This document shows positions 61 to 63,300 of a stretch of DNA of 64,000 nucleotides, one piece after another. A program made the position numbers and the translations under genes. The DNA is taken from the IMG/VR virus record IMGVR_UViG_3300005444_000001, positions 4,406 to 68,405 of that record, one strand, 5' to 3'. This DNA is from a virus. The notes below the pieces were generated by a model. The model was not told where the DNA came from. It did no database searches and saw only the letters and a list, made by a program, of their open reading frames with translations. How positions within the stretch are numbered: position 1 is the first letter of the stretch; each line of letters starts with the position of its first letter.

Positions 61-77
61 CTCTCCCACTGGGCGAC
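61..77. repeat. 17-bp palindrome copy
   Basis: CTCTCCCACTGGGCGAC, 2 nt after a stop codon. Confidence 0.9.
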
Positions 78-104
78 GAATCCCGTGTATCAAAAAGAAA
101 CTCG

Positions 105-134
105 TTGACAAACTGACACGCTGTCGGTTAGGTT
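105..134 (+). promoter_or_regulatory. Possible sigma70 promoter for the head operon
   Basis: TTGACA (105-110), 18 bp, TAGGTT (129-134), upstream of ORF 208. Confidence 0.4.
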
Positions 135-207
135 CAGCGCGTATCAACAAGTCCCGTCACGCTATCCGAAGATTGGAACGTGGGCGCGACGGAGTAAAAA
201 TTCCAAT

Positions 208-1572: not shown

Positions 1573-1595
1573 GTTTCAGAAAAGGAGCAAAAGTC

Positions 1596-2855: not shown

Positions 2856-2872
2856 TGGTAATGTGAATTTAG

Positions 2873-2925
2873 AGTAGCGGCTAGGGTAGCTCCCGAACGC
2901 CAACTTCCGATTGGTTGCCGCTACT
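2873..2925 (+). ncRNA. Candidate three-way-junction RNA element upstream of HNH gene
   Basis: AGTAGCGGC/GCCGCTACT 9-bp closing stem enclosing GGG-TAGCT-CCC and CCAA-CTTCCGA-TTGG hairpins. Confidence 0.4.
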
Positions 2926-3849: not shown

Positions 3850-4923
3850 ATGGAAATCGTACACCCAGAGAAGCCTTCGACCTGGCGCAATCACCCCGCG
3901 CCATACCTCGAACCTAACCTAGTTCAGCAATTGACGCGTATTGGTGGATTAAACCTCTATGGCGAGTCGATTTTACGGTTTGTCTGGGGGCAGGCGCGAG
4001 TACAGTTTCGGCGCGGGAAGGAGCGGTTGCTTTACGTCGACGAGCGCATTGAGGCGATCAAACACTCCGTTCACTTACTGAAGCGACCGCTGATTACTGA
4101 CGCTGCTGGCCGTGTCTCCCATTGGGAGACAAAGCAGGTCGGCCGCGCGCCTTCGGTCGTCCCTGAAGGTTGGTGCTACGAAGAAAAACTCGCCTCGGTT
4201 GAGTTCATTGGCAAGCAGATGTGGTTTGTCGAGCAGTGGTATCCGCCGATTGTAAACCTACCGAATGGCGAAACGTTTTTACCGTTTGGCACGCCTGCGC
4301 AGTGGGAGCGCGACCGCTACGAAGACTGGGAAGACCCGGAGATTGGTTTCGTCAAGAACTGTGACGTGTTAGGGCCGTTTCCGTCGCGCGGGCGCTACAC
4401 GGCGGTCATGTGCGTGAGTAAGCCGTTCACCTGGACGGACTACGAAGAAGAGAACGTTCATGAGTATTACTTTAATTGCGGCGGATGTGGTGCGCCTCAT
4501 TTCGACAAGGATTACGAGGGAATTATTTTCAAGTGCGCGGATCGTAAAGACTTGAAAGTTGGCGAGAAATACGCGATTGCCGTCGATACGATCAAAGTGC
4601 CGCGCGAGATTCGAGACGTTTGCTATCGCGAGCTCGGGCAAGATGTGATCGAAGAATTTGAATTTCAGGCGCGTGTTCGCGAGCAGCGTCACATTGAGAA
4701 AATCGAACAGCGAACCAGGGATTTGTACTACGAAGACGATCAAAGGCGAGCAAGGGCGCGCGATCAGCGACTTGAACATGCGCGCGCTAAGCTCACAGAA
4801 GATGCCTGGCGGTGGCAGTCAGCCGATAGTGGACCGACCGGCGGTATAGGCGGCGGCTCTCGGGTGTATATTGAGAACACAGACGCCGCAGAGCATCTGA
4901 ACAAAAGAGAGGAAGCAGCATAA
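3850..4923 (+). CDS. Hypothetical phage morphogenesis protein
   Basis: 357 aa ORF in the co-directional head operon; function not recognised. Confidence 0.6.
   Translation: MEIVHPEKPSTWRNHPAPYLEPNLVQQLTRIGGLNLYGESILRFVWGQARVQFRRGKERLLYVDERIEAIKHSVHLLKRPLITDAAGRVSHWETKQVGRAPSVVPEGWCYEEKLASVEFIGKQMWFVEQWYPPIVNLPNGETFLPFGTPAQWERDRYEDWEDPEIGFVKNCDVLGPFPSRGRYTAVMCVSKPFTWTDYEEENVHEYYFNCGGCGAPHFDKDYEGIIFKCADRKDLKVGEKYAIAVDTIKVPREIRDVCYRELGQDVIEEFEFQARVREQRHIEKIEQRTRDLYYEDDQRRARARDQRLEHARAKLTEDAWRWQSADSGPTGGIGGGSRVYIENTDAAEHLNKREEAA
4114..4130. repeat. 17-bp palindrome copy (perfect arms)
   Basis: GTCTCCCATTGGGAGAC, inside a CDS (VSHWET). Confidence 0.9.
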
Positions 4924-9449: not shown

Positions 9450-9466
9450 GTCGCCCAGTGGGAGAC
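9450..9466. repeat. 17-bp palindrome copy
   Basis: GTCGCCCAGTGGGAGAC, 4 nt past the stop of the antisense ORF. Confidence 0.9.
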
Positions 9467-13810: not shown

Positions 13811-13827
13811 GTCGCCCAGTGGGAGAG
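13811..13827. repeat. 17-bp palindrome copy
   Basis: GTCGCCCAGTGGGAGAG, 6 nt past the stop of the antisense HNH. Confidence 0.9.
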
Positions 13828-20591: not shown

Positions 20592-20608
20592 GTCTCCCAA
20601 TGGGCGAC
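20592..20608. repeat. 17-bp palindrome copy
   Basis: GTCTCCCAATGGGCGAC, 2 nt after a stop codon. Confidence 0.9.
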
Positions 20609-22652: not shown

Positions 22653-23083
22653 TTTTCTCTCCCATTGGGTGATAAATTCAGAATTGGCAATACGCCGTTG
22701 ATTGCCCATTCCGTCACGAGCGGCCTGATAGCCGCCCAGTCTGCGTAAGGGCGGCCGTCCGGCGGATAGACCAATGGACAACCAAGTGCCGCGTCGTCGA
22801 TGTACAGATGCGCGTAAGTCTTTCGTGATGAAGACCACGAGCCTTGATCGGGATTGTGGTTAATACCCCAAAACATGACGCCTTTCGATTTACAGAATTC
22901 TACCGCTTCTGTCAGCGTGTTTCCGTGTATTCCGTGATCCGAACGGATCGTCCAAAGCACCAACTGAACGCCCATGTCTTGAAGCTCACGCAGACAGTCG
23001 AACGCGTAGGGTACAGGCGGGCCGATAATCGGATACTCATGCCGAACAAGAGTGCCGTCGAAATCTACTGCAAGAATTTTCAC
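22649..23083 (-). CDS. HAD-superfamily hydrolase (BT0820-like)
   Basis: Motif I 'IL.VDFDGTL', motif II 'LWT.R', motif IV 'YIDD'. Confidence 0.8.
   Translation of the reverse strand: MKILAVDFDGTLVRHEYPIIGPPVPYAFDCLRELQDMGVQLVLWTIRSDHGIHGNTLTEAVEFCKSKGVMFWGINHNPDQGSWSSSRKTYAHLYIDDAALGCPLVYPPDGRPYADWAAIRPLVTEWAINGVLPILNLSPNGREN
22657..22673. repeat. Degenerate palindrome copy
   Basis: CTCTCCCATTGGGTGAT (2 mismatches); supplies an SD on the minus strand. Confidence 0.55.
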
Positions 23084-24027: not shown

Positions 24028-24278
24028 TCGTTTTCTCTCCCAGTGGGCGACACGGGCAGTCGGTACAGTTCGATCTTATCGACGCCGGAAGCGCGGTAAG
24101 ACATCGACGGGTAGATTCGCCATTGCTGTGCCGACCCTTCAGCGAGAAACGCCAGTATCGCTCGTTCTGCGGGCGTCTCGCCTTCCAGTTTAATGCTCGG
24201 CTCTTTCTCGCCGTGAAATTCGAGTAGAAACTTCATCAGGCTCCTTTCGGCAGATGCAGTTGATAGTAGCGTCGCCAC
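24024..24278 (-). CDS. Hypothetical protein
   Basis: 84 aa, overlaps the next gene by ATGA. Confidence 0.45.
   Translation of the reverse strand: MATLLSTASAERSLMKFLLEFHGEKEPSIKLEGETPAERAILAFLAEGSAQQWRIYPSMSYRASGVDKIELYRLPVSPTGRENE
24035..24051. repeat. 17-bp palindrome copy
   Basis: CTCTCCCAGTGGGCGAC; gene end, SD of the next gene. Confidence 0.9.
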
Positions 24279-25895: not shown

Positions 25896-27289
25896 AATTC
25901 TCCTAACTCGTGAATCCAGTCGCCGACCGGATCGGTATCGTTCGTGTAGAGCGCGTCTGTTGTGGTCGCGGAAATCCCGTCCAAGATTGCGAAGATGAGC
26001 GAGCGACAGCGTTCAAGTTGCCAGTCTTCGCGGGAAGGGATGGCGGTCTGGTACGTCTTTCCTTCCATGTAGAAACATTTGTCTCCCACTGGGCGACACT
26101 TGGGCGCGGCGGTTTTCGTGTCTTCGGATACTTGCGACGTTTGGCTTTCGGAATCTCCGACATACCATTCGATCGGACGCGTGCGTGTCGATTTACGACC
26201 TTGCGCCTTCTCGTTGGCCTCCGTCGCCTCGCTTTGGGGAACCGTGTGAATATCGGGATTAAAACCGGGGAAGACTTGGGGAATAACTTCCCACGAGGAA
26301 TCAAGCCACTCCTGAAACTTGCCCGCGATCTGAATTTCAAGCAGAGTGCGATCCTTCGGCAACTCGCCTGTCTCGATCCATCCACAAAGGTACTTAAATG
26401 CCGCGTTCCATTGTCCCGTGAATAGGTTGCGGCCTAGCGATTCGTCAAACCAGAGATGTTTCAGTTCAAGAAACCATCGGACGACCGTTTCAGGATGAAC
26501 GGCGCTGGTAAGCTGGTACTTGCGCCCACGTGCCTTTTCGTTATCGTACTTCGCCCCAACGGACGCGACATCCTCCCCCAAAGATGCCGCGTCCGTGCGA
26601 TTCTCGGAGTGCGTAGTCTCCGAGCCAGCCGCGCCGAATCCACATTCAGCGCAGGATTCAAAATCGCCTGAACCATCAGAGCGAGGTCTGAGCGGAGCGG
26701 CGCACTTTGGACAAAGCGTCATAACCATCGGCCCTTGCGCCGCTGCGCCGTATTCAGCGCCAGCGAGAAAGGCGGATTTGACTTCATCTTCCAGTCCGAA
26801 GACTAACTTGCCGCCGAGATTACGCACGCCGGGAAACTTGCGCCGCAGCCACACTTCAAACGCATCTTCTACTTTCCACGGTGGCGGCCCGGACGCGGTT
26901 TTATGACTGAGAATCGCGTTCAATGCGTTTACGCGGGCTACGACAGATTGAGTCCACGGCACTGACTCTGGCGTTGCAGTGGTAAGCAGGTTATTCAGCG
27001 CCGCCGCCTCTTCTCGCAGTCGGTCGATTTTCGCGGACGGTATCTGCCCGAACAATGGTGGCGGGTCGGTACGGACGCCTCGTTCTTTGGCCAGGCGGCT
27101 AAACTCAAGATGTCCGCCGTATTCCGCGCCGGTCGCTAACGCGGTAAAGAACGCTGACTCAACCTCTTTTTCGATAATCGGCCCGAAAGCGCCTCGGTAC
27201 TTCCGAAAAGCCGCCCACGCCTGTTGTTCCCAGTCCTCGCGTTCCTTGGCGCCGGTATGTGACGCTAAGACTTTTTCGATTAAACTCAT
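25880..27289 (-). CDS. Mosaic hypothetical protein with an internal repeat
   Basis: 469 aa; 'E.EV.SAF...A.GAEYG' occurs twice; central CxxC ribbon. Confidence 0.55.
   Translation of the reverse strand: MSLIEKVLASHTGAKEREDWEQQAWAAFRKYRGAFGPIIEKEVESAFFTALATGAEYGGHLEFSRLAKERGVRTDPPPLFGQIPSAKIDRLREEAAALNNLLTTATPESVPWTQSVVARVNALNAILSHKTASGPPPWKVEDAFEVWLRRKFPGVRNLGGKLVFGLEDEVKSAFLAGAEYGAAAQGPMVMTLCPKCAAPLRPRSDGSGDFESCAECGFGAAGSETTHSENRTDAASLGEDVASVGAKYDNEKARGRKYQLTSAVHPETVVRWFLELKHLWFDESLGRNLFTGQWNAAFKYLCGWIETGELPKDRTLLEIQIAGKFQEWLDSSWEVIPQVFPGFNPDIHTVPQSEATEANEKAQGRKSTRTRPIEWYVGDSESQTSQVSEDTKTAAPKCRPVGDKCFYMEGKTYQTAIPSREDWQLERCRSLIFAILDGISATTTDALYTNDTDPVGDWIHELGELWASI
26081..26097. repeat. 17-bp palindrome copy
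   Basis: GTCTCCCACTGGGCGAC, inside a CDS (CRPVGD). Confidence 0.9.
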
Positions 27290-30214: not shown

Positions 30215-30799
30215 CTACACGTACTCGAAGGTTTGGATGATGTCTTTCGCCTGGGACTCGCTCAACTGCCCGACTTCCTTAATGTCGGCCGCCCACGGGA
30301 AAGTATCTTTGCAGTCGTTGATGAACTTCACGACCTTCTCTTTCGTGTCCATGCCCTTTTCTGCGCCCTTGCGCATGACGCTGGCGATCAGCGCGGGAGC
30401 GGCCTTCGGACCCGCTTGCCCCCCACTGGGCGACGTTTGGGACTTGGCCGCGGCGGACGCTGGCGCGCCTTCATCATGGGCGACGCTCTGGTGGTAAGCA
30501 TCCTTCCATGCGTCGTCTTTCATGTAGAACGAACTTTTATCCTTACGCTCAGAGAGGTTCATTTCGTGCGTCTTTGGGCCGGTGCATTTGAGCCCGTAGT
30601 AGTGGTACTCCTGCGGATGGCGCGCAAAGAATACCAACGGCGCCCCGCACCCCGGCATTGGGCACACAGTCGGTAACTGCTGCCAAAAACTGCACGCCTC
30701 GATGACGTTCTTTTGCTGGTCGATCGGATTGGCGCCGGCGGCAACCTCGATTTCGATTACGAGCCCTGGCGATAGTTCGATTTTAGCTCCTACTGACAT
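30215..30799 (-). CDS. Hypothetical protein (recombination module)
   Basis: 194 aa, SD AAGGAG, CP..GC...C...H motif. Confidence 0.55.
   Translation of the reverse strand: MSVGAKIELSPGLVIEIEVAAGANPIDQQKNVIEACSFWQQLPTVCPMPGCGAPLVFFARHPQEYHYYGLKCTGPKTHEMNLSERKDKSSFYMKDDAWKDAYHQSVAHDEGAPASAAAKSQTSPSGGQAGPKAAPALIASVMRKGAEKGMDTKEKVVKFINDCKDTFPWAADIKEVGQLSESQAKDIIQTFEYV
30418..30434. repeat. Degenerate palindrome copy
   Basis: GCCCCCCACTGGGCGAC, inside a CDS (TSPSGG). Confidence 0.6.
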
Positions 30800-32231: not shown

Positions 32232-33541
32232 TTAGTCATTGAACTTCTGCTCCTCGCAAAACGATTCCCACTCCTTCTGAATCCGATCCGCAAGCTCCCA
32301 TTTCAAATCGACGCGAATATCTTCACGTAACGCATTGAACTGGGGCATCAACTCTAGTAACGACTCCGCTGCATCCCATGAACGCGGATCGACACTTGGT
32401 CTTTTCTTTGCCATTTTCATCCTCCAAGCTTTCTACGCTACGGCATCAGGCGCCGCCGATAAATTAGACATGTGGCTATCTTTTCGCGCACTCATGAATC
32501 GAGGCGCAGACGGTACATAACGATCCGCGCAGGCACTTCATGCATTGCTCAGTTTCGGACTTGAGCGCGGGCGCGTGACATTCGCCGCAATGGATTAATA
32601 CATCCCAGTTCTGCAGCGCGAAGAAACTGAAATCGACAGTGAGCGAGCGCGTGAATCGTACCTTTCGCTCCCGGTCGCCGGCGGTGTCGTTGCGCACTTG
32701 GATGACGCCTACGGTCCCGACCTCGTATTGAATCCCGAGCGCCGCGCCTGGGCGAATCGCCACGACCATCATTCCACTTGCAAGCGTTAAAGAATCAGCG
32801 TAGCGCATCAGTAGCCCCTTCATTGACTCTCTCCGTGATGTCTCTGAGCCACGCGAGCACGCTCTCGCTTGGCGCGTAGCTTATTCGCTTGGAGCGCGCC
32901 ATTTGGTCGTTATAGAACTCGTAGTCGACGCGCTTCATCTTGTCGAGATCGGCGTCTTCGCTGATGATGCGGAGACACTTGCGCGCGGCCTCAGCGCGTT
33001 CCGCCGGACTGAGTATGTTGGAGCGCTCAAAAGCAAAGGCTCTAGGCATTAGACATCCTCCTGCTTGGTCTGCTCTTTGTGAAATTCAACTAACTTAGCA
33101 GCGAATCCGCTTGTGTCGCGCGGGTGGCTAAGAACGATAAAGCTGCCCTCACTTCCCGCGCGTCGGATCAGTAGATATTCTTGCCACTCGCCGAGGTTGT
33201 AATGTTCAAGCGTTCGGCGAACCTCGGTCATGCCCACATTCAAATCGTCGTTAAGGTCTTTGGTTGTTGCCATGCGTGTCTCCCACTGGGCGACGAAAAC
33301 TCTGCGCGGCGTAGCAATCGGCGAAGTGAGATATGAACTCGCCCGTCATCCCAGATTCGCGCTCTTTCTTGTTGATTACGTGATACAGCCAGCGGCCATC
33401 TTTGAATCGAATTGTGATGTTCGGCGCGAGCCCGCCTTCTCGCGGGCGCAAAAGCGGCGCGCGTGTGCCCGTGCGTTCGTGATACGCCGAAAAGATTGGC
33501 GCTTTACATGCGGCACATGGAAACCATTCAGGTTCGTTCAT
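32232..33541 (-). other. Run of five small hypothetical genes (32232-32420, 32476-32808, 32795-33049, 33049-33273, 33251-33541)
   Basis: Tightly packed or overlapping co-directional ORFs of 62-110 aa. Confidence 0.45.
33278..33294. repeat. 17-bp palindrome copy
   Basis: GTCTCCCACTGGGCGAC; SD of the gene starting at 33273. Confidence 0.9.
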
Positions 33542-35092: not shown

Positions 35093-35838
35093 GCGAATAC
35101 CTCGCTCGGCTTGACGGTCTGGTTATCATTTCGGTTATCAAACGGTACAAATTTAAGAGAGCACCCCATGTCCTTAGCGATGCGCTGAGCATTCAGCAAT
35201 GACATGAAATTACCGAAGTCGCGCGGGTTCTCAAGTGGTTCGAGCTTCCAGCCGCTCCGATAAAGTTTCGGGTTTAGATGGAGACACGCGCGCTTCTTTG
35301 CTTTGGGGAGCTCGTAATCCTTCGCGCAGCGGTTGTAGGCTTCCAGGTACGCGGCCGTCTGCATTCCGACAGTCTTGGGAATGAGCGCGCTGGCCTTCAC
35401 GTCGATCAGGATTATTTCTTTGCTGAGATTTTCGCAGACGCCCAAGATGTCGAAGCGACCAACGTAATCCATTAAATCGTGATAGACGAACATCTCGACG
35501 GCATGTCTCCCAGTGGGCGACACGAGCGTGCGGAAACCAGTTTCCTGTTTGAAGCGCCAGTACCCGGTCATCCATCCAGCCGAGTCTTCGCTGTCGAGAA
35601 CAGTGACATAGGCAGGCTTTCGGTTCTGCCGCTCGCATCGCTCGATGTCTTGAGCGATTTTATGCCCGCGGTCGCCCGCCTTCTCCTTGACCTGTTGATT
35701 CGCCGCCAGCCACTCATTTTCCACATAAGGCAAACACCCTGTCACACTGGTAATGCGCTGGCCGAAACGCTCGTATCGGTGGTCGGCGTCACTGTAAGTT
35801 ATGCCGTGTTTTGCGAGCAAATCCGTCATCTTGTCCAT
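35089..35838 (-). CDS. PD-(D/E)XK (Cas4/RecB-like) phage exonuclease
   Basis: 'TSVT..L...G..I...E.F.Y....YVGRFD....LIDVK.....MQTAAY'. Confidence 0.75.
   Translation of the reverse strand: MDKMTDLLAKHGITYSDADHRYERFGQRITSVTGCLPYVENEWLAANQQVKEKAGDRGHKIAQDIERCERQNRKPAYVTVLDSEDSAGWMTGYWRFKQETGFRTLVSPTGRHAVEMFVYHDLMDYVGRFDILGVCENLSKEIILIDVKASALIPKTVGMQTAAYLEAYNRCAKDYELPKAKKRACLHLNPKLYRSGWKLEPLENPRDFGNFMSLLNAQRIAKDMGCSLKFVPFDNRNDNQTVKPSEVFA
35505..35521. repeat. 17-bp palindrome copy
   Basis: GTCTCCCAGTGGGCGAC, inside the exonuclease CDS (VSPTGR). Confidence 0.9.
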
Positions 35839-36239: not shown

Positions 36240-38587
36240 CGCTTGTCTCCATTCTCATAAAACCTATCCAGCATTCCACCTAACTGCGAAGCGTTGTACT
36301 TGCGGAGCATCTTTAAGGCAACCTGAGCCGCCCGAGGCGTCAATTCATCGCGACATGCGAGACTGTGCCCAAACCTACTATCGATGCCGTTATATCCCAT
36401 CCCATCCTTCGCAAACGCTCCGTCGCATACTCCCGCCAGCGTACGGACGGCAATCAAGATGTCGCGACAGTCGGTGACCGATAATTCTGGTCCTACGTTT
36501 TTATTGGGGTTTATTTGGTCACCTGTTAAATTTCCTAACGATTCTGCTGGTGACCAACTCGAAACGGGTCCGCTCGCTTCCAGTTTCTCCGGTAGCGCGA
36601 TTTCTCCCCCACTGGGCGACACGGCGGGCAGTTCGGCCATCATCGGGATTTCACGATCAAGCGCATTGAAGTTAATCTCTTCCTTATCGACGAGCGTTTG
36701 CGCCATTCGAGCATCGAGCGAGCCTTGGAAGGCACAGTATTGAATCAATGAAGAAGTCTTTTTGAACGGATTCTCCAGTCGCGCCTCCGCTTGGTTGATG
36801 TCTTTCGGCACCCAAGACCACTCCGCCATCACACCCACATCGGCAGAACTCATGTCCAAGCCTTCGCAGATTGCAATTCCGAGCACACCCAAACCCGCAG
36901 GCATAGCGTTAAAACGATCCTGCATCGCCACGCGCTGATTTCCTGGCGTCTTACCGTAGATGCTCACGCACCCGGGAAACTCGGCCGCGATCTGCTCTAC
37001 TACGTCGTTGTGCCACGCGAAGCAAATCACCTTTGGCGTCTCTTCCAGCAGTTCTTTTAAGTGCTCGACGATGAACGGAATTCGTTTGATCGCGTCTTCG
37101 TGGCGCACGCGCGACATTTCCTCGAAACAGGCCAATTTGTCGGTGTCGAGATCGCGCACGTCGTCGCGGTATTCTTCTATGTCGGTCGTGACCGTCGACG
37201 CGCGGACCGTAATATCTGTGTAGCGCTTCCAGAGACGATCCTGTTCGTTAATGAATCCATCATCCGGGCATGGGAACTCAATTAGCTGGCGGCGGCGCTT
37301 GGGGAATTCTTTGTAGACATCAGGGAATAAGCGCCTGACCATGTACTTTGATCGCAGGATCGTCTGTAACTCGTCCAGATTCGACGCGCCGTCCATAGTC
37401 CAGCCAAACGGGCCTCGCTGCGCGTCAGCAAATCGAATCGCAAACTTAAACCGTGACGATTCAGGGAAAGACTTTGGATCGATCCAATTCAGCGCCGGCC
37501 AGATTTCCATTGCGCGACCATTTGGACTAAGCGTTCCGGTTAGCAGAGCGCGCTTCTTCGGCTGTAGCGCCTGAAGGTATTGATGTTTCGCTGTACCGAT
37601 GGTCTTAAAATCGTGACACTCGTCCACGATTACCATATCCCAAGGCACGGCAACTTCGTCGCGCACGCGATAGACCTTTTTCGTCGCTGGTACCATTCCG
37701 GCTTTCGTCTTCTTCATTTTTGGTTTGCCAGACTTAAGTAGGACCGGGACGATCATCTTGTCTTTCGGATTACCAAGAATTTGCGCGTTTGCAATTACCA
37801 CATCGGTGTCCGGCCAGTCGCTCAAGCCCCAAGCGACGCCGACACTGAGCCCGAGCGTCGACCAGCGCCTCCACTCGCGCTGCCAGTTCAACTTGATCGT
37901 CTTCTTCGTGATAATCAGAATTCGCTTTACGTCACGGTGACAGTTTGACCAGCAAATGCTTTCCGGGGTCTTCCCGATCCGCATATCATCGCCAAAAATC
38001 ACGACGTCTTTGTTCTGAGCGTAGAGCACTGCGGCGACTTGGCACGGTAGCAATGCAAAGCCTTTGGCCGGATCCGGCACGGCGTAAGATGGCAGAGCGT
38101 CGACGTCCGCCTCGATCGCGCGCGAGGCCGCCATTGCCGCCGCTTGTCGCGCCTGCGTACCCCTTAACAAGTCTTGCGCCTCTGCATCGCAAACAAACAC
38201 GTCTGGCGCGCCTTCCGCGGCCGCCTGGTAGCATCTGAGCGCAATAGCAACGTCTTCTGTCCACCAGTGCCATACCGGAACCTTGGAGACGCGCATCCCC
38301 GCGTCTTTCGCGTAGCGGTTGAACTCGTAAGGCGAGTAATACTTCCACGTCGTACCATCGAAAGTCAGCGTGGCTTTATCCGGATCCGGCAACCCTTCAG
38401 CTTCGGGTAATAGCTCCGCGCGGAGAGCGTCATCCGCATACGCGGCGAGTTTTAAGGCGACTCTCGGGTTCTCTGTGCGCCAGCGACGATTGTTTCGATC
38501 CCAGGTGAAGCCAGCGCCTTTCGCGGCAAATCGCTCCGTGTAATCACAGAGGAAGATGTATTGATTGTCTTCTTTGACTAGGCGCAT
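36236..38587 (-). CDS. SNF2-family (SMARCAL1/HARP-like) helicase
   Basis: 'DDMRIGKT', 'IVDECH', 'LLTGT', helicase-C domain, two N-terminal HARP-like repeats. Confidence 0.85.
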   Translation of the reverse strand: MRLVKEDNQYIFLCDYTERFAAKGAGFTWDRNNRRWRTENPRVALKLAAYADDALRAELLPEAEGLPDPDKATLTFDGTTWKYYSPYEFNRYAKDAGMRVSKVPVWHWWTEDVAIALRCYQAAAEGAPDVFVCDAEAQDLLRGTQARQAAAMAASRAIEADVDALPSYAVPDPAKGFALLPCQVAAVLYAQNKDVVIFGDDMRIGKTPESICWSNCHRDVKRILIITKKTIKLNWQREWRRWSTLGLSVGVAWGLSDWPDTDVVIANAQILGNPKDKMIVPVLLKSGKPKMKKTKAGMVPATKKVYRVRDEVAVPWDMVIVDECHDFKTIGTAKHQYLQALQPKKRALLTGTLSPNGRAMEIWPALNWIDPKSFPESSRFKFAIRFADAQRGPFGWTMDGASNLDELQTILRSKYMVRRLFPDVYKEFPKRRRQLIEFPCPDDGFINEQDRLWKRYTDITVRASTVTTDIEEYRDDVRDLDTDKLACFEEMSRVRHEDAIKRIPFIVEHLKELLEETPKVICFAWHNDVVEQIAAEFPGCVSIYGKTPGNQRVAMQDRFNAMPAGLGVLGIAICEGLDMSSADVGVMAEWSWVPKDINQAEARLENPFKKTSSLIQYCAFQGSLDARMAQTLVDKEEINFNALDREIPMMAELPAVSPSGGEIALPEKLEASGPVSSWSPAESLGNLTGDQINPNKNVGPELSVTDCRDILIAVRTLAGVCDGAFAKDGMGYNGIDSRFGHSLACRDELTPRAAQVALKMLRKYNASQLGGMLDRFYENGDKR
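36604..36620. repeat. Near-consensus palindrome copy
   Basis: CTCCCCCACTGGGCGAC, inside the SNF2 CDS (VSPSGG). Confidence 0.7.
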
Positions 38588-39939: not shown

Positions 39940-39956
39940 GTCTCCCAGTGGGCGAC
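39940..39956. repeat. 17-bp palindrome copy
   Basis: GTCTCCCAGTGGGCGAC; SD of the exonuclease gene at 39932. Confidence 0.9.
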
Positions 39957-41478: not shown

Positions 41479-41495
41479 GTCGCCCACTGGGAGAC
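41479..41495. repeat. 17-bp palindrome copy with extended arms
   Basis: CGT-GTCGCCCACTGGGAGAC-ACG, 8 nt after a stop codon. Confidence 0.9.
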
Positions 41496-42444: not shown

Positions 42445-42962
42445 TTAGAAAAGCTGTTCCTGTCCGAAAAATGAAAGCTGCGCCCGGTCCGCGGTCAGCC
42501 GGCGGATACGTCGATCGCAAGGCGCGCAGACCATTCGCCCATCGCTGAGCCCCACCATTTCAGACTCAGGCGCATAGCCGGTGCATTCCTGGCAGGAGCG
42601 CATCGGGCTCGCACAGCCAGCATAAACGCGTCCAGGCGCGCCCACTTTGCATTGATTCTCCATAAATTCGCTCTCCTTCTCGCGTCTAATCTCCGCGCGG
42701 CAAAGTGTCTCCCATTGGGCGACACGCTGCCGGACTGGGATTAGAGAAGCATTGCCCGCTCTGCGATAAATCCGCTCGGCAATTCAACGTGAGCGACGAT
42801 AGACGCGCCCAGGTTCGTTACTCTCAGACTGTACCGAAGGAGACGCGCCTTAACATGGGCCGGTGAATGCGGCGTGTCCTTGCCACCCTCAGCCAACTTG
42901 CGCACCATCTGACGCAATTCCTTAAAGTCGTAATATGTGGACTGTCCTACTGTTTGAGACAT
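42445..42962 (-). other. Two small hypothetical genes (42445-42663, 42741-42962)
   Basis: ORFs with SD AAGGAG and AAGGG. Confidence 0.4.
42707..42723. repeat. 17-bp palindrome copy
   Basis: GTCTCCCATTGGGCGAC, intergenic. Confidence 0.9.
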
Positions 42963-43898: not shown

Positions 43899-43963
43899 AG
43901 TGCGATACGGTGCAATACAGAATCCTTGACAAGTGCGATACAGTGCGATACAAAGTGCGGTAC
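43899..43963 (+). promoter_or_regulatory. Promoter with five 10-bp direct repeats (operator)
   Basis: RGTGCRRTAC at 43899, 43909, 43932, 43942, 43954 around TTGACA (43926)-17-TACAAA. Confidence 0.65.
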
Positions 43964-43964
43964 A

Positions 43965-49388: not shown

Positions 49389-50024
49389 ATGACGCGAGTA
49401 ATCGGCTACATTCGAGTGAGTACAGGCGAGCAGGCGGACTCGGGGGCGGGTTTGCAGGCGCAGCGCGAGCGAATCGATGCGGAGTGTCAGCGCCGGGAAT
49501 GGGAACTTGTGCGCGTCTTCGAAGATGCGGGCTTGTCGGGGAAGTCCACGGACCGGCCGGGATTTGAGGCGGCGCTGGAGTACCTGCAGGATCGCGCGGC
49601 CGAAGGGATTGTCGTCTCAAACCTCGATCGATTGACGCGTTCACTGAAAGACTTTGCGGAGTTAATGGAAAAGGCGCGGGCTGAGCAGTGGAACCTCGTT
49701 GCCCTGGATTTGGGAGTTGATTTGTCCACGCCGGCGGGTGAGTTCCTGGCGCACGTCATGGCCTCTGTCGCCCAGTGGGAGAGACGGATCATTTCTCAAA
49801 GAACGAAGTCAGCGCTGGCGGTGAAGAAGGCGCAGGGCGTGAAGTTAGGCAGTCCGACAAAGACGACGAAGGAGACGAGAGAGTTGATTCGACGGCGCCG
49901 CGAGGCGGGCGAGTCGCTGGCGAAGATTGCGGAGATGTTGAACGAGCAGGGGATTGAGACAGGTCGCGGCGGGAAGCAGTGGTATCCTTCGAGCGTGGCG
50001 TCAGCGGCGGCAGCGCCGGATTAA
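49389..50024 (+). CDS. Serine recombinase (resolvase/invertase family)
   Basis: 'IGYIRVSTGEQ', 'SGKSTDRPG', 'LDRLTRS', 'ERRIISQRTKSAL..KKAQG..LG'. Confidence 0.9.
   Translation: MTRVIGYIRVSTGEQADSGAGLQAQRERIDAECQRREWELVRVFEDAGLSGKSTDRPGFEAALEYLQDRAAEGIVVSNLDRLTRSLKDFAELMEKARAEQWNLVALDLGVDLSTPAGEFLAHVMASVAQWERRIISQRTKSALAVKKAQGVKLGSPTKTTKETRELIRRRREAGESLAKIAEMLNEQGIETGRGGKQWYPSSVASAAAAPD
49767..49783. repeat. 17-bp palindrome copy
   Basis: GTCGCCCAGTGGGAGAG, inside the recombinase CDS (VAQWER). Confidence 0.9.
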
Positions 50025-51409: not shown

Positions 51410-51651
51410 GAGATTAGCGCCCGCCCCTTATCCGTTAGTTCAAAGTCGCCGCGACAGCCGCAGGCGCAGCCAGAGACGAGTCCGCGCTTAATGAGCGCGC
51501 GCATCTTCGCCAGCGCGATTTTAGGTAGAGTGTTCGGCGGCATCGCCAACGTGACACTGTTTGGGTATTCATTGCCGTACCACGTACATGGCTCTCTGCG
51601 TTCGGCTAAATGCCGGAGCACAGGTTCTTCTGGGATATCCTTAGCTTGCAT
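51406..51651 (-). CDS. Conserved phage hypothetical protein
   Basis: MQAKDIP...LIKRGLVSGCACGCRGDFELT; SD supplied by the palindrome. Confidence 0.6.
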   Translation of the reverse strand: MQAKDIPEEPVLRHLAERREPCTWYGNEYPNSVTLAMPPNTLPKIALAKMRALIKRGLVSGCACGCRGDFELTDKGRALIS

Positions 51652-51653
51652 CT

Positions 51654-51670
51654 CTCTCCCACTGGGCGAC
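51654..51670. repeat. 17-bp palindrome copy
   Basis: CTCTCCCACTGGGCGAC; SD of the gene at 51651. Confidence 0.9.
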
Positions 51671-52160: not shown

Positions 52161-52592
52161 ATGTCGAAACGACGCATACCTGAACAACGAAAGACTGGCG
52201 CTCCAAAGTACAACACGGCGGAGTTCAAGCGGCTGACCGGTTATAGCGAAAAGACTCTGTATCGGTTGATTTCTGAGCGGCATATCCGAATGCAGCCGTT
52301 TCGCGGGCGCTGGAGCGAAGAACAGCTTCAGGACGTTCTGCTGTACAAAAAGTCAGTCGAGGCGGGGCGACCTTCCGGACCGGCGCGCATCAACCAGACC
52401 TTTCCTGTGCGCCCGCCCGTACTGAAAGCGCTGTCGAATCTGAGAGATGAAGGTAAGTACGCGAACCGCGGCGCGGCGCTGGAGCATACAATTCTGCACG
52501 CGCTTGCCTGCGAAAACTTTAAGCCCGGGCCGCACAATCTGGTCGTCGACGAGCAAGGCGCGGTCAGCGAAGTAGATTTGAGCAATTTGTAA
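52161..52592 (+). CDS. DNA-binding protein: excisionase-like HTH plus RHH-like domain
   Basis: 'YNTAEFKRLTGYSEKTLYRLI' and 'INQTFPVRPPVLKAL...NRGAALE..ILHAL'. Confidence 0.6.
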   Translation: MSKRRIPEQRKTGAPKYNTAEFKRLTGYSEKTLYRLISERHIRMQPFRGRWSEEQLQDVLLYKKSVEAGRPSGPARINQTFPVRPPVLKALSNLRDEGKYANRGAALEHTILHALACENFKPGPHNLVVDEQGAVSEVDLSNL

Positions 52593-52637: not shown

Positions 52638-52654
52638 GTCTCCCAATGGGAGAG
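52638..52654. repeat. 17-bp palindrome copy
   Basis: GTCTCCCAATGGGAGAG, intergenic. Confidence 0.9.
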
Positions 52655-54893: not shown

Positions 54894-55401
54894 CCAGCGC
54901 CTCGTCGATGAGCCCGGGCGACCATCCTGCGACTTTTCCGTAAGCACGTCCGCGCGCGCGCCATGTCTCCCACGGGCGACAATAGCACCCAACGTGCATT
55001 AGGTCGCTGACGCACTCTGAGATAATGACACGAATCAACGAGTCTTCGATGACGTGATAGCGCGGCGGCTGCGTCCAGGTGCCGCGGTCGAAGCGGACGT
55101 GTTCATTAAGCGACCAAGGGCCGATAAGTTTAGCGTTGAAGACTCTGACGTTTTCGAGATCGACTTCTTCGACGGTGGCGTTGTAGAGGCGAGATTGTCC
55201 AGCGATTGTCGAGTGTCTTACTGTGGAATTGATTATCAAAGCGTCATCTTGGATTAGCGAGGAAATGATTTTGGAGCCGTATGCTTCTGTGCTGTCGCCG
55301 ACTGTAGAATGGCGATCAAGAAGAGTGTCAGAAGATATTTCGCAGTCATTTCCATATTTTCGTCCGTTTCCGCGATGATGTCTTAACCAAATTTGTTCCA
55401 C
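54802..55401 (-). CDS. Beta-helix-like hypothetical phage protein
   Basis: 199 aa with repeated short beta units and a 'HVGC..R.W..W' C-terminal motif. Confidence 0.5.
   Translation of the reverse strand: MEQIWLRHHRGNGRKYGNDCEISSDTLLDRHSTVGDSTEAYGSKIISSLIQDDALIINSTVRHSTIAGQSRLYNATVEEVDLENVRVFNAKLIGPWSLNEHVRFDRGTWTQPPRYHVIEDSLIRVIISECVSDLMHVGCYCRPWETWRARGRAYGKVAGWSPGLIDEALVKMAEWRQGSGNAALSLPRTLGRVHAESGD
54965..54980. repeat. 16-bp variant (one base shorter centre)
   Basis: GTCTCCCACGGGCGAC, inside a CDS. Confidence 0.6.
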
Positions 55402-55827: not shown

Positions 55828-55856
55828 TTGTCAATAAAATTTTCTGTCTGTATAAT
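55828..55856 (+). promoter_or_regulatory. Strong sigma70 promoter
   Basis: TTGTCA, 17 bp, TG-TATAAT. Confidence 0.75.
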
Positions 55857-55897
55857 GCAGGCACTCGAATCATTCCCGTGGCGCGAGTATCGACGAG

Positions 55898-55932
55898 AGG
55901 TCGGAGCAGTAATGTTCCGGCCTTTTGTTTTT
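55898..55932 (+). terminator. Rho-independent terminator about 40 nt after the promoter
   Basis: AGGTCGGAGCA-GTAA-TGTTCCGGCCT then TTTGTTTTT. Confidence 0.75.
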
Positions 55933-56006
55933 CCGGGTTGAAGTGAAAAGGGAACGGGCGACCTGTTTCCAGACCGCCCGCCCACCTGACGAAAGGAGAA
56001 TCAAAT

Positions 56007-56096
56007 ATGAGCCGTAACGCTCCGCATCCTAACGAATTTCTTTACCTCAAAGCAAGTGGAATGTTATTGTGCGCTCTATGGCCTTGTACGGCGTAA
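56007..56096 (+). CDS. 29-aa leader ORF overlapping the start of the next gene
   Basis: SD AAAGGAG; MSRNAPHPNEFLYLKASGMLLCALWPCTA*. Confidence 0.4.
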   Translation: MSRNAPHPNEFLYLKASGMLLCALWPCTA

Positions 56097-57310: not shown

Positions 57311-57312
57311 AT

Positions 57313-60300
57313 GTGTCCACACCACGCGACGAAATTGATCGAATCCTCGGCCTCGCGCCGCCTCCGCAGCAAGCAGACTTCCCGTCGCTCGTTCGCTCTG
57401 CTGCTACAAGACTGAACGTTCCCCTCGAAGTTGCCGATGATTACCTCCGCGTAACCGGTGGGATCGAATCAGGTAATAAGCACTATCGCAACGGTAAGGT
57501 ACTCATGTCTGACATGGGCGCGTTGGGCGGCGGGCAATTGACGCCTGACAAGCCCGACACGTTTCATAAGACCGTCAAAGGAAAAGCCTACGATCTTCGT
57601 GATCCTGCGCAGAATGCGGAAGCTGGACTGGCGTACTTCTCCGACTTTGGTGACGATCCGATTGCTCGACGAATCGGATATTTCAGTGGCGACAGTAAAT
57701 CTCTCCGACACTACCGAACGACTGGTCGCATCCCGCTTGGTGGAGAGCGTGACCCAAAGAGCGGGAAACTCCGGACAAGTTTTCATAAGTACATTTCGGT
57801 GACGGGCGGCTTTGACCAGATAAAGCCTTCGCGAGATACGATCGACGCCGTGCTTGGTTTGTCTCCCACGGGCGAGACGTCCGCCCCTGAAGAAAAACCG
57901 ACTTACGGCGTGGCCCCGTTGCCGGATTTGGCAACATCAAGCGAGGCGCAAAATCCGGCAACGCCAGTTCCGCAACAGCCGCAACAGTTCCTGAAGTCGA
58001 TTGTTCGTCCTGAACCGGTCGCCATCGCTAGCGGTTCTACACCAGTCGCGCCGGACACCGCGCCAACATATAAACCGCCAGAGCCGCCAGAAAAGGCACG
58101 TCCGGCTGACGAGTTTACGAGCAAGAAAACCTTCAACGTTCCGCTGAAGCCGTTCGACAAAGAGCAGACAGGCGCGCTTGGGTTAATTGGCAATGCTGGT
58201 CCCGAAGCGCAGGCTGGTTACATCGACTGGGTGCGCCGCAACGCATCCAGCAGGCCAGACGCCTCACTTGCCGACGAGTCTTACGCGCAAACCTTTGTCA
58301 AGATTCAGCAGTACCTGGGCGCGAATCCGAAGGCGACACCTGAAGAGACTGTCAAAGAATTCGCGAAATTTGGGCAAGATTTTGTCAATGACCCGGCGAC
58401 GAAAGGTAAGCAGTTACCGAAGACGCTGCATGACGCGATGCTGCGGGCTCCATATGGTGAAGATGAACTCAAAACGCTTCCATCAAAAATCCGGCAGCAG
58501 AGAGCGCAGGTTGCTCGAGCCGACCAGCAGCGCCAGGCTGAAGCCGCGCTACAAAAACAGACCTTTGATCTGTACCGGAAAAATCCGGAACAACTCAATC
58601 GAAACATCGCGTGGCACTTCGGCGAAGAAACGCTGCGAGGGCTCGCGAACCTGCCGGAGAAGACGCAGCGGCATGTTGCGTTGATGGCGGTCGCCGCGGC
58701 GAACGAGGACGAGCGGAAGCGCCAGGCCGGCCAAACTGACTTCCAGCAGGATCCGAACTATCAGGCAACGATGCGGAAGAGAGCGGGGATTAGCGATGAT
58801 TTGTTAGCAGCCGCGACAGGGCCGATGAAATTCGTCCGAGAGATGGACACCTTTCTCGGAACTGCACAGCAGGAAGACCAGCAGCGTCAGACGATTCGGC
58901 AGCAAGTGCAGGCTGAACAGCAAGGCGGATGGGCGACGCGCGATCCGTCTACGGTGGAAGCGGAAACCGAGCGCCGCTTTCAGGCATGGAAGGCAGAGCA
59001 GCCCACAGAAGCCGAACTCGCGAAAGCAAAACCAGAGATTGAGCGACTGGAAAAGGCGAATTACTTCTGGCGCCAATGGGAGCGCGCAACGCCGGAACTC
59101 AAGAGTTTTGTCGAGAAAGCTCAGGCAACACTTGGCCGCGACTTGTCAAAAATTCTTCCAGGTGGCGTGGGCGCGCGTCTAAAGACCTTCGCTGAGCAGC
59201 AGCAGAGCGAAGCGCGCGTCGATGACCTGATCGCGCAGCATGAATACTCCGGCGATCAAACAATACTTCGCGGGATTGGCAAAGAGGTTGTTCAGCAAAC
59301 ATTTTCACTGGTGCCGCTGATCACGAGCGAGGCTGCGACAGGTATTCCGTTTCCATTATTGATGGCTGGACAAAGCTATTTGGAGAACGGCAACAAGCCA
59401 GCGTCCACGCGCCTAATAATGGCCGGTAGTGCGTACTTGATGGGCAAGGCGTACCAGAAAGTGCCGGGCCTGACTGTGGAAGGTTTACAGAAAATTCCCG
59501 GCGCGGTCGGTGAACTCGCTACGAAGTATCCGAGCGTCGCGTCGCGCATTGTCGGCGCGGGGGAGTTTGGCGGGCTTGGCGCTGGCGAGACGTTGGCGCG
59601 AGGCGGTACAGCGAAGCAGGCGGTCATTAGCGGCGTTGCGCAGGCCATTCCGGGCGCAGTGTTGGCAGGAAAACCAGAAGAACCAGCGGAGGTAAGTGAT
59701 GCCAGGAGCGAACAAATTCAGTCCGAAAGAAGATCGGCAAATCAACCATATACTGCAAGCGCTGATGAACCGGGGCGTGTCGGAGGACGAAGCGAGCCAC
59801 CAGGCGTACGGGAAAGTTCAAAACCTGAGAAAGCAGCACGGCCAGCAACCGAAAAAACCGAAGGTGTATCACGTCAGCCGACGGTAGCGCGCGAAGACAT
59901 TGACCGCGCGCTTGGACTAACTGACGAACCAGCGGTGAAAATTAGTCCACCTGCAAAAGCAGAGACAACGGCTTCCACGCCTTCTGAGGGTGGAGTATCT
60001 GTACCTGAAGCAGCAAAAACCGCTCGCAGAATTCTTGATGCCTATGACAAGACGGGCGAAATTTCAACTAAGCGAGAAGTTGTTAAAGAATTGGAGAAGG
60101 CGGGATTGCTACCGGAAGGGGTGGCGGCATACCGAGCGGCTGAAATTGAGCACCGTGAGCTTGGTATGCGAATGGATGTTCCCGGCGAAGTGTTTGAGGC
60201 TCAGGTGTGGCCGAAGTTGACCCGGCTAGCTGAAGGCGCACCCAGCACCGAGACTATCAGCACTCCCTCGCGGCGAGTTGCCGTGCCGCAAGAGTTAATA

Positions 60301-63300
60301 GATCGCGCCACCCAGCTAGAGAAGGACTTGACATCTGCAACGTCCGATGCTGAGCGATTTAGACTTCAGAGCGAGATGAGTGCGAATGACCGGGCTATCG
60401 GTGCCGCGCTCTCAGCCCAACCATCTGTACCTCAAGAAGCACCAAAGGTCTCAGAACTCGCAAAGCCGTTTGGTGGGGTATCACCTGAAGTTTCACAGAC
60501 GTACCAAGCGGAACTGCGGGCTAAGTTCGCCACGCCTCTAAAGCCGAAACCCGTCGTGTCGCCCACGGGAGAGATGAAATCAAAGGAGAAAACCGATGAG
60601 CAAGTTGTACCAAGTCGAGCCGAAAACAAACCCGCCGTCAAGCCGAGTATTGCCGCTGCGCAAGCGAAAGCCAGAGAATTACAATCCGCACCAGAGGTTC
60701 GAGAGACTGCTCGGACAGCACTTCCTGGCGCTGCAGGGCGAGAAACCGACATCACTATCCCCGGCACGAACCGGCGCTACAAAGCACGGTACGCACTCCG
60801 AGAAGCCGACGACATAGAGGCGTCGCACAATCCGGAGAATTTCAATCCCAATCCGAAGTATCCGTACACGAACGATCGGCGCTATGAATCAGAGCCTCAA
60901 TATCAGACGCAGGTAATAAACAGATCGAAATCGACAGGGCCAGAGCCGTTCGATCCGCGCCAACTCATCAACACGAGCCCAACGATCGACACCGGACCGC
61001 CAGCAGTTACTGAAGATGGTCTAGCGTTGGGTGGTAACTCACGGGCGATGATCGCCAAGCGCGTTTACCGTAATAATCCAGAAGGCGCTGAAGCCTATCG
61101 CAAGGTACTAACAGAGGATGCCGCCAGTATAGGAATCGATCCCGCTGAAGTCGCGAAGATGAAGAACCCTGTTCTGGTGCGCGAAATCAGTAACGAAGGG
61201 CTAAAGTCAAGCGAGGTTCAGCGAGCCATCACCGACCTGAATGTCACCAGCACGACTCCGCTGACTCGCGAAGAACAGGGCGCGGCCGGCGCTCGCCGCA
61301 TGTCTCAGGACTCCGCCGATTTTATCTCTCAGGCGATTGAATCTAAAGGCGAAGACGCCACGCTGGCGACGGTAATGGACGCGACTGGTCCGGAGATTAT
61401 CAACAGACTAATTGCTGATGGTGTCATTCCCGCTGGCGATCGAAACGTGCTTATCAAAAACGGCAAGGTCACGCCCGAGGCCAAGTTGAGGGTCGGGCGA
61501 CTACTGACCGGTCGAGTTTACGAGAATTTGGACCAGATGAAGGTCACGGCGCCAAGCGTCCAGAATAACATCGAAAGAATTGCGCCAGCGCTTCTTCAGG
61601 TGGAAGGCTCTGACTGGGATCTCATTCCAACAGTACGTCGAGCGCTGGATGCTGTACAGGAGTCCAAGGCGTCGCGCATTCCGCTGGATGACCTTAATAA
61701 CCAAGCGTCGATGACGCGCGGTGAACCCTTTACCGCCGAAGAATTGTCGATTGCTAAAGCCCTTCAGATGGATCCGCGGCAGGCAGCAACTCGATTCCGA
61801 CAATACGCGAACGACTTCGAAACTGAAAAGAACGGCCAGAGCGGATTATTCGGCGAACCCGCCACCCAGGCAGAAAGTTTCGATCAGAACTTTGGCGAGG
61901 CAAAGCGCGGTCCCGGCGCTGCGAACGTAGGCGACGTGCCGACTGAGCGGACGGTCGCGCAACTCACTGACGCTATTAGTAAGTTGCCCAAAGGCAAGTC
62001 GGTTCGTGAGGCGATGGCCGCTGCTCTTGATACTGCCGAAAAACTTGGCGAAGGCAAGGACGCGCTTCATCGAGCATGGCTGCGCACGGTCGCTAGTTCA
62101 AAAGCTTTGATTGTTCGACGGGAGGTTTCAGACTACCAAAAGAGTGTCGGCGAATTTGAGAAAGCCAGACAGCGTAACGCTTTTGAGACGCGCCAATTCG
62201 TGAAGCAAATCAAGGAAACCGTGCCAAGCCGATTGCGTCGCGAGGCGATCATTAACTACATCCAGGCAGACGGCGATAACGCTCTGCTGATGCAACGCGC
62301 GCAGCAATCTAAGCTCCGGCGACGACTCGGATACGAAGAAGCGACGCGACTGACTGATGAAGAAAAGACGGTCGCGAATATGGTTAGTTCCGCGTGGGAG
62401 TCTGGCTGGCAAGAAGCACGCGACAAAGGCATCCTGCACGGATTTATTGAAAACTACGTGACTCAGGTTTGGAAGCGCAAAGACCCGATTCGGCAGAAAC
62501 TTCTGGCCGACGTTCAGCGCGGCTTGCTCAACCCGACGTTTCAGTTCAACAAGCAACGTATCTTTGCCGATTACTTTGAAGGTGAGCAGGCAGGGAAAAT
62601 CCCCGCGTCGAAAGACATTGGCGATATGTACGCGACGTGGAACCAGTCAATGCAGACGGCGATCTACTCGCGTGATTTCATTCGCGGTCTTTACGACATT
62701 GACGCCGTTGACGGTCGCCCGGTCGCGCAAATCTCCGGCTCCGGGAAGTTGATTTCAAAAGAGGAGGCAGGGCCGGAAGAGTTCGTGCTGCGTCCGCGCA
62801 CAAAGCAGGCAAGTATGCAGGAGCAGATCGCACGGAAACGAGCGGGTGAACCATCGCTAAATATCGCCGGCTATGGCAGCGTGAATCATTCGGCGATGCA
62901 CGGCTTTAAGTGGGTTACGAAAACCGCAGACGGTACGCCGATGTTCATGGAAGGCGACATCCTTATTCACTCAGACCATCTTCAGCAAGTTCGCAATTTA
63001 CTTGGACGCTCTGCGTTTTCGTCTGGCCCACTGAAGGCTTTGAAAGTGACGCAGCAAACCATCAAAGGCACGATGTTCGGATTGCTCCCGGAATTTCACC
63101 TAGTTCAAGTGGCGACGCACGGGCTTGGACATCGAATTTTGCCGTGGAACTTGGAGAAGATTGATTTCGATCATCCGATTCAGTCGCTACTCGTGAGTCG
63201 TGGCGCGCAGATCGCGAGTTTCGACGCCGCGCAAGAATACGGTGAAGGGTTAATGGCAGGAAACCTTTTGGCGAAAATCCCGGTGTTAGGTTCTCGGATC

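Follow-up and report, generated by a model that had tools for sequence, protein, structure and literature searches.

Why should a phage carry one short, nearly palindromic word approximately once in every 3 kb of its chromosome, within genes as well as between them? This question is raised by a 64,000-nucleotide stretch of DNA (the window, whose coordinates are used below) that forms part of the 72.8-kb record of an uncultured soil phage, here called G000 (G000:C1:4406-68405). The first ~80 nt of this record are repeated at its end (1–83 and 72718–72800), which indicates that the contig is a circular assembly of the complete genome. Among sequencing runs, only a rhizosphere metagenome, probably the source of this DNA, contained the whole sequence, and no RNA data set was listed. 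In this work the anatomy of the word is defined, and we show that selection acts on its nucleotides, that its positions are conserved in a divergent relative, and that the copies are re-spelt in a lineage-specific manner. As for its role, we tentatively favour the idea that the sites are docking places on duplex DNA, likely for a dimer of the helix-turn-helix (HTH) and ribbon-helix-helix (RHH) protein encoded at 52161–52592, which at gene junctions would act as a roadblock in the manner of the mycobacteriophage stoperators; the binding, the reader and the function are all inferred.

Copies and anatomy of the site

The strict form of the site, STCKCCCANTGGGMGAS, matches the window 15 times, and no match was obtained in 100 dinucleotide-preserving shuffles. 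Three degenerate copies (22657, 30418 and 36604) depart from the 15-nt core at one or two positions, and three 16-bp copies (54965, 57861 and 60558) share the centre CCCACGGG and have one central base fewer. All the copies of these three kinds that the initial annotation had listed were recovered at their places. Other sites are found outside the window, at 171, 2086 and 69365 of the genome, giving a total of 24 in 72.8 kb.

The word had been described as a palindrome; however, its arms differ systematically. The usual form is GTCGCCC-ANT-GGGAGAC, in which a G arm faces a T/A arm and the last base is C or G. At pair 4/14 Watson-Crick complementarity is found in only 3 of the 24 sites of G000, and at every other inner pair in 23 to 24 of them; hence, the site is a near-palindrome with a broken dyad. 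The conserved span comprises 19–20 nt (T-GTCGCCCA-N-TGGGAGA-s-A), and an alignment of the flanks revealed no other conserved box in the 45 nt to each side. Half-sites on their own show hardly any enrichment in G000, from which it follows that the dyad is the unit.

The possibility that the word is a host repeat was addressed with 185,579 species genomes, among which at least 120 matches were detected, all of them single copies, with the word present only once per contig; this speaks against a dense host repeat. The exact G000 17-mer was observed once per genome in Caulobacter and Brevundimonas (over a dozen genomes together) and in several genomes of Duganella, which possibly represents one conserved host locus.

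Location of the sites relative to genes

Ten of the 24 sites touch intergenic DNA, against an expectation of 10.9% (P=1e-4), and the other 14 are located in or overlap coding sequences (CDSs). A gene end is found at 30 nt or less from 11 sites (P=4e-4). In ten cases, when approximately three were expected, a start codon (nine ATG and one TTG) follows GGGAG by 2–9 nt in the forward orientation. At the junctions where GGGAGA is on the message 2–15 nt before the start (22657, 24035, 33278, 39940, 51654, 13811 and 52638), this arm supplies the Shine-Dalgarno sequence, and at three other junctions (61, 20592 and 41479) sites in the opposite orientation lie 2–8 nt after stop codons. A scan for promoters and terminators between 39 and 57 kb gave no more matches than chance; the terminator scan, whose total was no higher than chance, overlapped a single site (52638), and no T tract, as expected of an intrinsic terminator, follows the sites. 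The best sigma-70-like promoter of this region (TTGTCA-17-TATAAT, 11/12) is located within 55828–55983 and is followed by a 14-bp GC-rich hairpin with T-rich flanks (55952–55983, called on the minus strand), just before the gene 56078–57310 and the giant gene.

The copies inside genes use three different reading frames, as the initial annotation had pointed out, but most of them use one of these and are read as S-P-x-G-[D/E/G/R]. They are found in linker segments rich in Lys, Pro, Ala and Glu, and several of the peptide segments that bear them are missing from the orthologue in another phage. The 7-kb giant gene holds two copies in each of G000 and its relative G001 (see below). When the CDSs were shuffled among synonymous codons, keeping the intergenic DNA fixed, the strict count dropped from 17 to a mean of 9.1; therefore, protein sequence and codon usage do not by themselves account for the in-gene copies. 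Together with the synonymous codons that track the consensus of each lineage, this result sustains the earlier proposal that selection acts on the nucleotide sequence and not on the peptide.

Immediately downstream of the copy at 60558 there is an in-frame ATG (2 nt away, 60558–60600) followed by 1287 codons, just before the ddrB-ParB domain, and it is conceivable that a shorter C-terminal product of the giant protein is made from an internal start near this position.

Conserved positions and lineage-specific spelling

No relative of G000 was detected among the INPHARED phages, either by DNA or by capsid protein. In IMG/VR the capsid protein alone matched nothing, and a capsid alignment matched only G001; in metagenomes, relatives with capsid proteins 42–75% identical were found. 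G001 is a syntenic 70.9-kb IMG/VR contig, with a capsid protein 68% identical to that of G000, and it carries 20 sites, spelt TCCCCC-AT-GGGGGA (12 sites), TCCCCC-ANT-GGGGGA (6 sites), or with a GT or AC centre (the remaining two). A third relative, L013, has the word TCCCCC-AC-GGGAGAC, and the closer relative L146 has the word of G000. Scans of IMG/VR with the exact words of G000, G001 and L013 revealed an array in G001 only, with single chance matches elsewhere. In the 21 kb examined of each of four relatives, namely L014, whose capsid identity is as high as that of G001, and three distant ones, no array was found, which makes the array look like an accessory system.

Nine of the 24 G000 sites (61, −2319, 64960, 57861, 20592, 24035, 30418, 35505 and 36604, of which −2319 and 64960 are outside the window) share with a G001 site the same junction, or the same or an adjacent alignment column, in proteins that are 29–81% identical; the number of coincidences expected by chance was estimated at approximately 0.14. 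All nine are spelt to the consensus of their own lineage, third codon positions included. For instance, within the segment DSP(T/M)GDK the codons are TCG CCC ACG GGC GAC in G000, TCC CCC ATG GGG GAC in G001, and TCC CCC ACG GGA GAC in L013; in L014 this segment is deleted. The in-CDS copies, whose loss in relatives would have spoken against selection, are thus kept. The age of these positions and the concerted re-spelling of all the copies point to a trans-acting reader that co-evolves with the word. Moreover, both orientations of the site are conserved at orthologous places of G000 and G001, a fact that recognition of duplex DNA accommodates better than an RNA hairpin does.

The break in the dyad also differs in place among lineages. 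G000 breaks pair 4/14 and G001 pair 1/17, the outermost one, where 18 of the 20 G001 sites have G on one side only and no site has G on the two sides; in L013 the arms are C and T.

A candidate reader of the word

Two binders had been put forward in the initial annotation, the HTH-RHH protein encoded from 52161 and, with more reserve, the ParB-fold domain of the giant protein. The former has gained comparative support; the latter, which corresponds to a Pfam ddrB-ParB domain in residues 1153–1292, showed no link to the motif. Few G000 proteins match any family, and the N-terminal HTH of the candidate reader gave weak Pfam and PHROG matches, together with leads in the Atlas. The C-terminal domain shows the order strand-helix-helix; it has no Pfam match, and a profile search of the Protein Data Bank (PDB) gave no significant sequence match to solved structures. 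The best fold matches of its monomer model were NikR, ArtA and ParD/MazE, all of them weak (E 0.28 or worse). The C-terminal 78 residues were modelled as a symmetric homodimer in which the strand 77–84 pairs with itself at T80, with a score of 0.72 versus 0.00 for the best control. Of 30 proteins whose solved structures are pairs of one chain, 20 reached the mark for a pass, as did 1 of 23 whose solved structures are single chains. The predicted local distance difference test (pLDDT) of the partner was at least 77, and the runs agreed in at least 95% of the contacts. It may be that this model passes owing to a likeness to solved ribbon-helix-helix dimers.

The family of this protein is very small, since only 10 matches were obtained among 1.84 billion cluster representatives. 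Four of the ten members (P0031–P0034) consist of the C-terminal domain standing alone after an N-terminal RGRP (AT-hook-like) arm. One of them, P0032 (JGI 3300071358), belongs to a syntenic phage, in which a holin gene and a giant gene of 2563 residues lie downstream of it. A scan of JGI metagenomes with these RHH-only homologues yielded no relative.

If the fold is that of an RHH protein, residues 80 and 82 of the ribbon should face the DNA, because they alternate with the conserved hydrophobic residues F81 and V83, an expectation drawn from the general ribbon-helix-helix pattern and not from the model. These two residues vary with the word. T80/P82 accompanies TCGCCC-ANT-GGGAGA in G000 and L146, Q80/R82 accompanies TCCCCC-AT-GGGGGA in G001 and L237, and T80/R82 accompanies TCCCCC-ACT-GGGCGA in L238; as regards residue 80, the centre has 3 nt where it is T and 2 nt where it is Q. 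P0026, a 91% relative of which only the protein was covered, also has T80/P82. In five of the five phages sampled a site is located within 0.5 kb of the reader gene, and in G001 and L237 it is inside codons 8–18 of the gene itself.

The Arc-like RHH/zinc-ribbon protein encoded at 43965–44534 was also considered as a reader, and is a weaker candidate, given that its own promoter has a different set of direct-repeat operators. Four direct repeats GTGCGATAC(A), interleaved with TTGACA and TACAAT-like boxes, are present at 43880–43965, upstream of this gene, and analogous GCTATAC repeats are found around a TTGACC before its orthologue in G001. The repeats at 43880–43965 probably are a separate operator set of an early promoter.

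Relation to known systems

The stoperators of mycobacteriophage L5 (Cluster A), recognised by gp71, amount to at least two dozen short asymmetric sites located mostly in the short gaps between genes and read by one small phage protein. Each site is a 13-bp non-dyad, bound by a repressor monomer and placed in one orientation with respect to transcription, in a temperate phage with immunity; the bound protein blocks the elongating RNA polymerase. By comparison, the sites of G000 are 16–17-bp near-dyads of mixed orientation and with many in-gene copies. Instead of a single orientation relative to transcription, 10 of the 11 sites in the minus-strand block are forward, the plus-strand blocks are mixed, and G001 is mostly reverse. 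No lysogeny module, integrase or repressor family was found in G000, where the only related gene is a small serine recombinase that has no homologue in G001. By analogy, the array could work like the L5 stoperators without belonging to that family.

The closest published case is the array of the Cluster O mycobacteriophages, Corndog and its relatives, in which a 17-bp dyad (TGTTCGG-N3-CCGAACA) is present in 34 copies in a genome of ~70 kb (Cresawn et al. 2015, PMC4351075). Fourteen of these copies are intergenic, 10 are near the 5' ends of genes and 10 are inside genes, with positions mostly shared among relatives (PMC4351075). The word is absent from the host, and a dimeric protein was inferred to bind it, without a function being assigned and with a transcriptional role being doubted (PMC4351075). 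The G000 array has the same 7+3+7 dyad and genome-wide copies between and inside genes (24 here versus 34), and likewise shows an excess of copies, in-gene selection on the DNA and positions shared by relatives. The two arrays are, however, unrelated in word, host group and phage lineage, and the arms are invariant and symmetric in Cluster O whereas here the dyad is broken (pair 4/14 is paired in 3/24 sites of G000, and pair 1/17 in 1/20 of G001). The arrays described here also differ in having two spacing classes, an arm that serves as ribosome-binding site, re-spelt words, and a named candidate reader with co-varying residues.

The best-understood analogue of a replicon-wide palindrome network is KorB-OB of the IncP plasmid RK2, where a short palindrome (core TTTAGCGGCTAAA) is read by a replicon-encoded protein that silences at a distance (PMC11790492). 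KorB is a ParB-family, CTP-dependent sliding clamp with KorA as its partner (PMC11790492). As in RK2 (~60 kb), the palindrome of G000 recurs around the replicon; unlike KorB and ParB systems, the only ParB-like element detected is the ddrB-ParB domain, and neither a ParB HTH nor a ParA was found. The candidate reader may resemble the RHH regulators (Arc, CopG, NikR, omega and ParG) in its strand-helix-helix C-terminus and its modelled dimerization through the strand; unlike them, this domain is fused to a MerR/AlpA-type HTH. To our knowledge, the known members of the RHH family act on one or a few clustered operators, not on a genome-wide array.

A possible mode of action

If the HTH-RHH protein is indeed the reader, its C-terminal ribbon-helix-helix domains would pair, and the two-stranded ribbon (residues 77–84) would read the centre CCC-A(N)T-GGG, while the two MerR/AlpA-type HTH domains, carried on GRP-containing linkers, would read the outer GTC/GAC arms; the flexibility of the linkers could allow both the 16-bp and the 17-bp classes to be bound. 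The protein would be made from the early region and then occupy the ~24 sites, nearly half of which lie exactly at gene junctions, where it would brake or block the host RNA polymerase along the long phage operons. Where a site directly precedes a start codon, the GGGAGA arm would be reused as a Shine-Dalgarno sequence; the fixed mismatch may be adaptive in this context, as it would prevent the transcript from burying this arm in a hairpin. Genes would tolerate the copies inside them because these are translated as S-P-x-G-D/E within flexible linkers.

Several observations weigh against this proposal. Each genome contains both spacing classes, 1 bp apart in length, and between G000 and L146 one orthologous site differs in class (17 bp in one phage, 16 bp in the other), a swap that is easier to explain for the loop of a hairpin than for a rigid dimer. 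The consistent asymmetry of the arms is not what a symmetric homodimer predicts. The sites bear no fixed relation to the predicted promoters. Regarding the reader, the full-length AlphaFold model is poor (pLDDT 46); the co-variation amounts to three variant classes, two of which come from a single site on a contig of less than 2 kb, and is confounded with phylogeny; and in L013, which bears an array, no homologue of the reader was seen, the relevant part of the contig being outside the sequence covered. The earlier proposal of a dimeric-protein site stands as the best reading, but a simple symmetric homodimer leaves the broken dyad and its two spacing classes unexplained.

Alternative explanations

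The same protein-DNA array could have an architectural or marking role, such as compaction, a self-mark, a shield from nucleases or defence systems, or partition in the manner of KorB/ParB, Noc or SlmA. We regard this explanation as rather unlikely in the form stated here, yet a role in marking or organising the whole chromosome is in itself almost as likely as a roadblock. The G000 sites are never clustered (the smallest gap is 984 bp, P<1e-4) and are spaced more evenly than chance (coefficient of variation (CV) 0.54, P=0.001), and classical operators cluster. In addition, copies are kept in long genes at the cost of rewritten linkers, which the control of promoters would not require, and the authors of the Cluster O study thought a transcriptional role of their array unlikely for similar reasons (PMC4351075). 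On the other hand, the spacing in G001 is not significantly even (CV 0.79, smallest gap 692 bp, one gap of 13 kb), no partition genes of the ParA/ParB type, no integrase and no plasmid functions were detected among the G000 proteins, and the enrichment exactly at stop/start junctions would be unnecessary for a pure mark.

The word could also act in the RNA, as a stem-loop that pairs GGGAGA with the anti-Shine-Dalgarno-like GUCGCCC and tunes translation starts or coupling, or protects the ends of messages, possibly with an RNA-binding protein. The start codons that follow GGGAG in 10 of the 24 sites and the reversed copies 2–8 nt past the stops at three junctions agree with such an element, the stems have predicted energies of −8 kcal/mol, and with loops of 4–5 nt the coexistence and interchange of the 16- and 17-nt versions would be accounted for. 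Nevertheless, this explanation is distinctly unlikely. Sites at starts make up less than half of the total in G000 and 3 of 20 in G001, and the two orientations, both of which occur and are conserved, would give different RNAs (with a G.A or a U.C mismatch). In G001 the stem is perfect, whereas G000 and L013 have a mismatch in it, and the energies predicted for the hairpins lie between −5 and −10 kcal/mol depending on the lineage (a perfect dyad would reach −17), so hairpin stability is not conserved; no compensatory base-pair changes were detected across the sites, and no Rfam family matches the element. The concerted re-spelling of loop and arm across a whole lineage is, moreover, unexpected for a bare hairpin.

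Very unlikely is the idea that the sites are primarily recombination junctions, shared words at module boundaries that let related phages swap genes or domains. It is true that the homology between G000 and L146 starts exactly at site 52638, that the gene order around the sites is shuffled, that the peptide segments bearing sites often coincide with indels relative to their orthologues, and that Cluster O phages have deletions between repeats (PMC4351075). However, nine positions are stable across a deep divergence, the re-spelling of the whole array requires a trans-acting reader, 17 bp is short for homologous exchange, and the sole site-specific recombinase (49389–50024) has no homologue in the array-bearing G001. 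Recombination at the repeats may rather be a side effect, as has been proposed for Cluster O.

Least probable of all are three further causes: promoters for a phage RNA polymerase of the T7 kind, in which the +1 to +6 region resembles GGGAGA, although neither Pfam nor PHROGs revealed an RNA polymerase, the reverse and in-gene copies would fire antisense transcripts, and the conserved span of only 19–20 nt lacks an upstream promoter part; targets of DNA modification, for which G000 has an N6/N4 methylase gene and a TGT-like cassette, both without a homologue in the array-bearing G001; and the peptide motif SPxG[DE], which most in-gene copies encode but which cannot be the cause because ten sites are intergenic, other frames are used, and the synonymous positions follow the word of the lineage.

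Implications

In relation to what has been described before, the new aspects are the systematic break of symmetry, the use of an arm as ribosome-binding site, the S-P-x-G linkers, the re-tuning series and a named candidate reader with predicted specificity residues. A more far-reaching interpretation, which we consider improbable, is that of a symmetry-broken, chromosome-wide lattice read by an undescribed HTH+RHH protein, both being re-tuned together in each lineage, with a whole-chromosome function, be it self-marking, protection or organisation, that has no described counterpart in phages. Doubtful to the same degree is a need for evenly placed sites so strong that S-P-x-G-D/E linkers came to be written into a helicase, a portal-region protein and a giant injected protein.

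The array is a tractable case, given that the same genomic positions carry the word in three or four spellings, a natural re-tuning series, that a close relative (L014) shows no array in the 21 kb examined, and that there is a single candidate reader from a very small family. The prediction is that the ribbon residues 80 and 82 set the spacing of the centre and the base of the arm. The array also illustrates how strongly a DNA word can shape protein sequences.

Position of the sites and other loci

The sites of the window and the gene of the candidate reader are listed in Table 1.

Table 1. Sites and candidate reader gene in the window, with their genetic context (RBS, ribosome-binding site)
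Feature	Position	Strand	Context
Site	61..77	-	Reverse orientation on mRNA, 2 nt after stop of KTSC-domain gene; orthologous G001 site 40898
Site	4114..4130	.	True palindrome (A/A arms), in CDS 3850-4923, reads VSHWET; site-like in L013, absent in G001
Site	9450..9466	+	Intergenic, between 9376 and 9689
Site	13811..13827	+	Intergenic, 15 nt before ATG 13843
Site	20592..20608	-	Reverse orientation on mRNA; 2 nt after stop 20589, 20 nt before ATG 20629; G001 ortholog 19632
Degenerate site	22657..22673	-	GGGAGAG arm 4-6 nt before TTG start of 22191-22652
Site	24035..24051	-	RBS 7 nt before ATG of 23080-24027; G001 ortholog 16247
Site	26081..26097	-	In CDS 25880-27289, reads RPVGD
Degenerate site	30418..30434	-	In CDS 30215-30799, reads TSPSGGQ; same alignment column as G001 10519
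Site	33278..33294	-	RBS 4-6 nt before ATG of 33049-33273
Site	35505..35521	-	In CDS 35089-35838, reads VSPTGR; column adjacent to G001 5822
Degenerate site	36604..36620	-	In helicase CDS 36236-38587, reads VSPSGGE; same column as G001 4916
Site	39940..39956	-	Intergenic; 6 nt after a stop, 7 nt before ATG of exonuclease gene 39243-39932
Site	41479..41495	+	Reverse orientation on minus-strand mRNA, 8 nt after stop of 41504-42037
Site	42707..42723	-	Intergenic; decayed in close relative L146
Site	49767..49783	+	In serine recombinase gene 49389-50024, reads VAQWER; identical in L146
Site	51654..51670	-	2-4 nt before ATG of 51406-51651, 0.5 kb upstream of HTH-RHH gene; 16-bp class in L146
Site	52638..52654	.	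A/A arms; 45 nt after stop of HTH-RHH gene, 12 nt before ATG 52667; L146 homology starts here
16-bp site	54965..54980	-	Intergenic or within a doubtful 199-aa minus-strand open reading frame
16-bp site	57861..57876	-	In giant gene, reads LSPTGE; same column as G001 54281
16-bp site	60558..60573	+	In giant gene, reads VSPTGEM, linker just before ddrB-ParB domain
Candidate reader	52161..52592	+	143 aa: N-terminal MerR/AlpA-type HTH_17, GRP linker, C-terminal ribbon-helix-helix-like dimer domain

A Pfam search with 74 further proteins gave matches only for an RNA ligase, NUDIX and a polynucleotide kinase (PNK)-phosphatase; no polymerase, ParB, integrase or HUH transposase was detected in this set. 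The RNA ligase (PF09414) is encoded at 47500–48114 and neighbouring positions, and the proteome also has polynucleotide kinase 3'-phosphatase/HAD and NUDIX matches; among these genes only that of the ligase was located, by means of its L146 homologue. The set resembles the Pnk/Rnl type of RNA-repair module known from T4.

The serine recombinase (49389–50024) has 211 residues, with a resolvase domain and an HTH, and its motif copy is located in the conserved VAQWER helix. It is also present in L146 and in the contig of P0026, and a homologue was not found in G001. The order of the recombinase and RNA ligase genes is swapped between G000 and L146.

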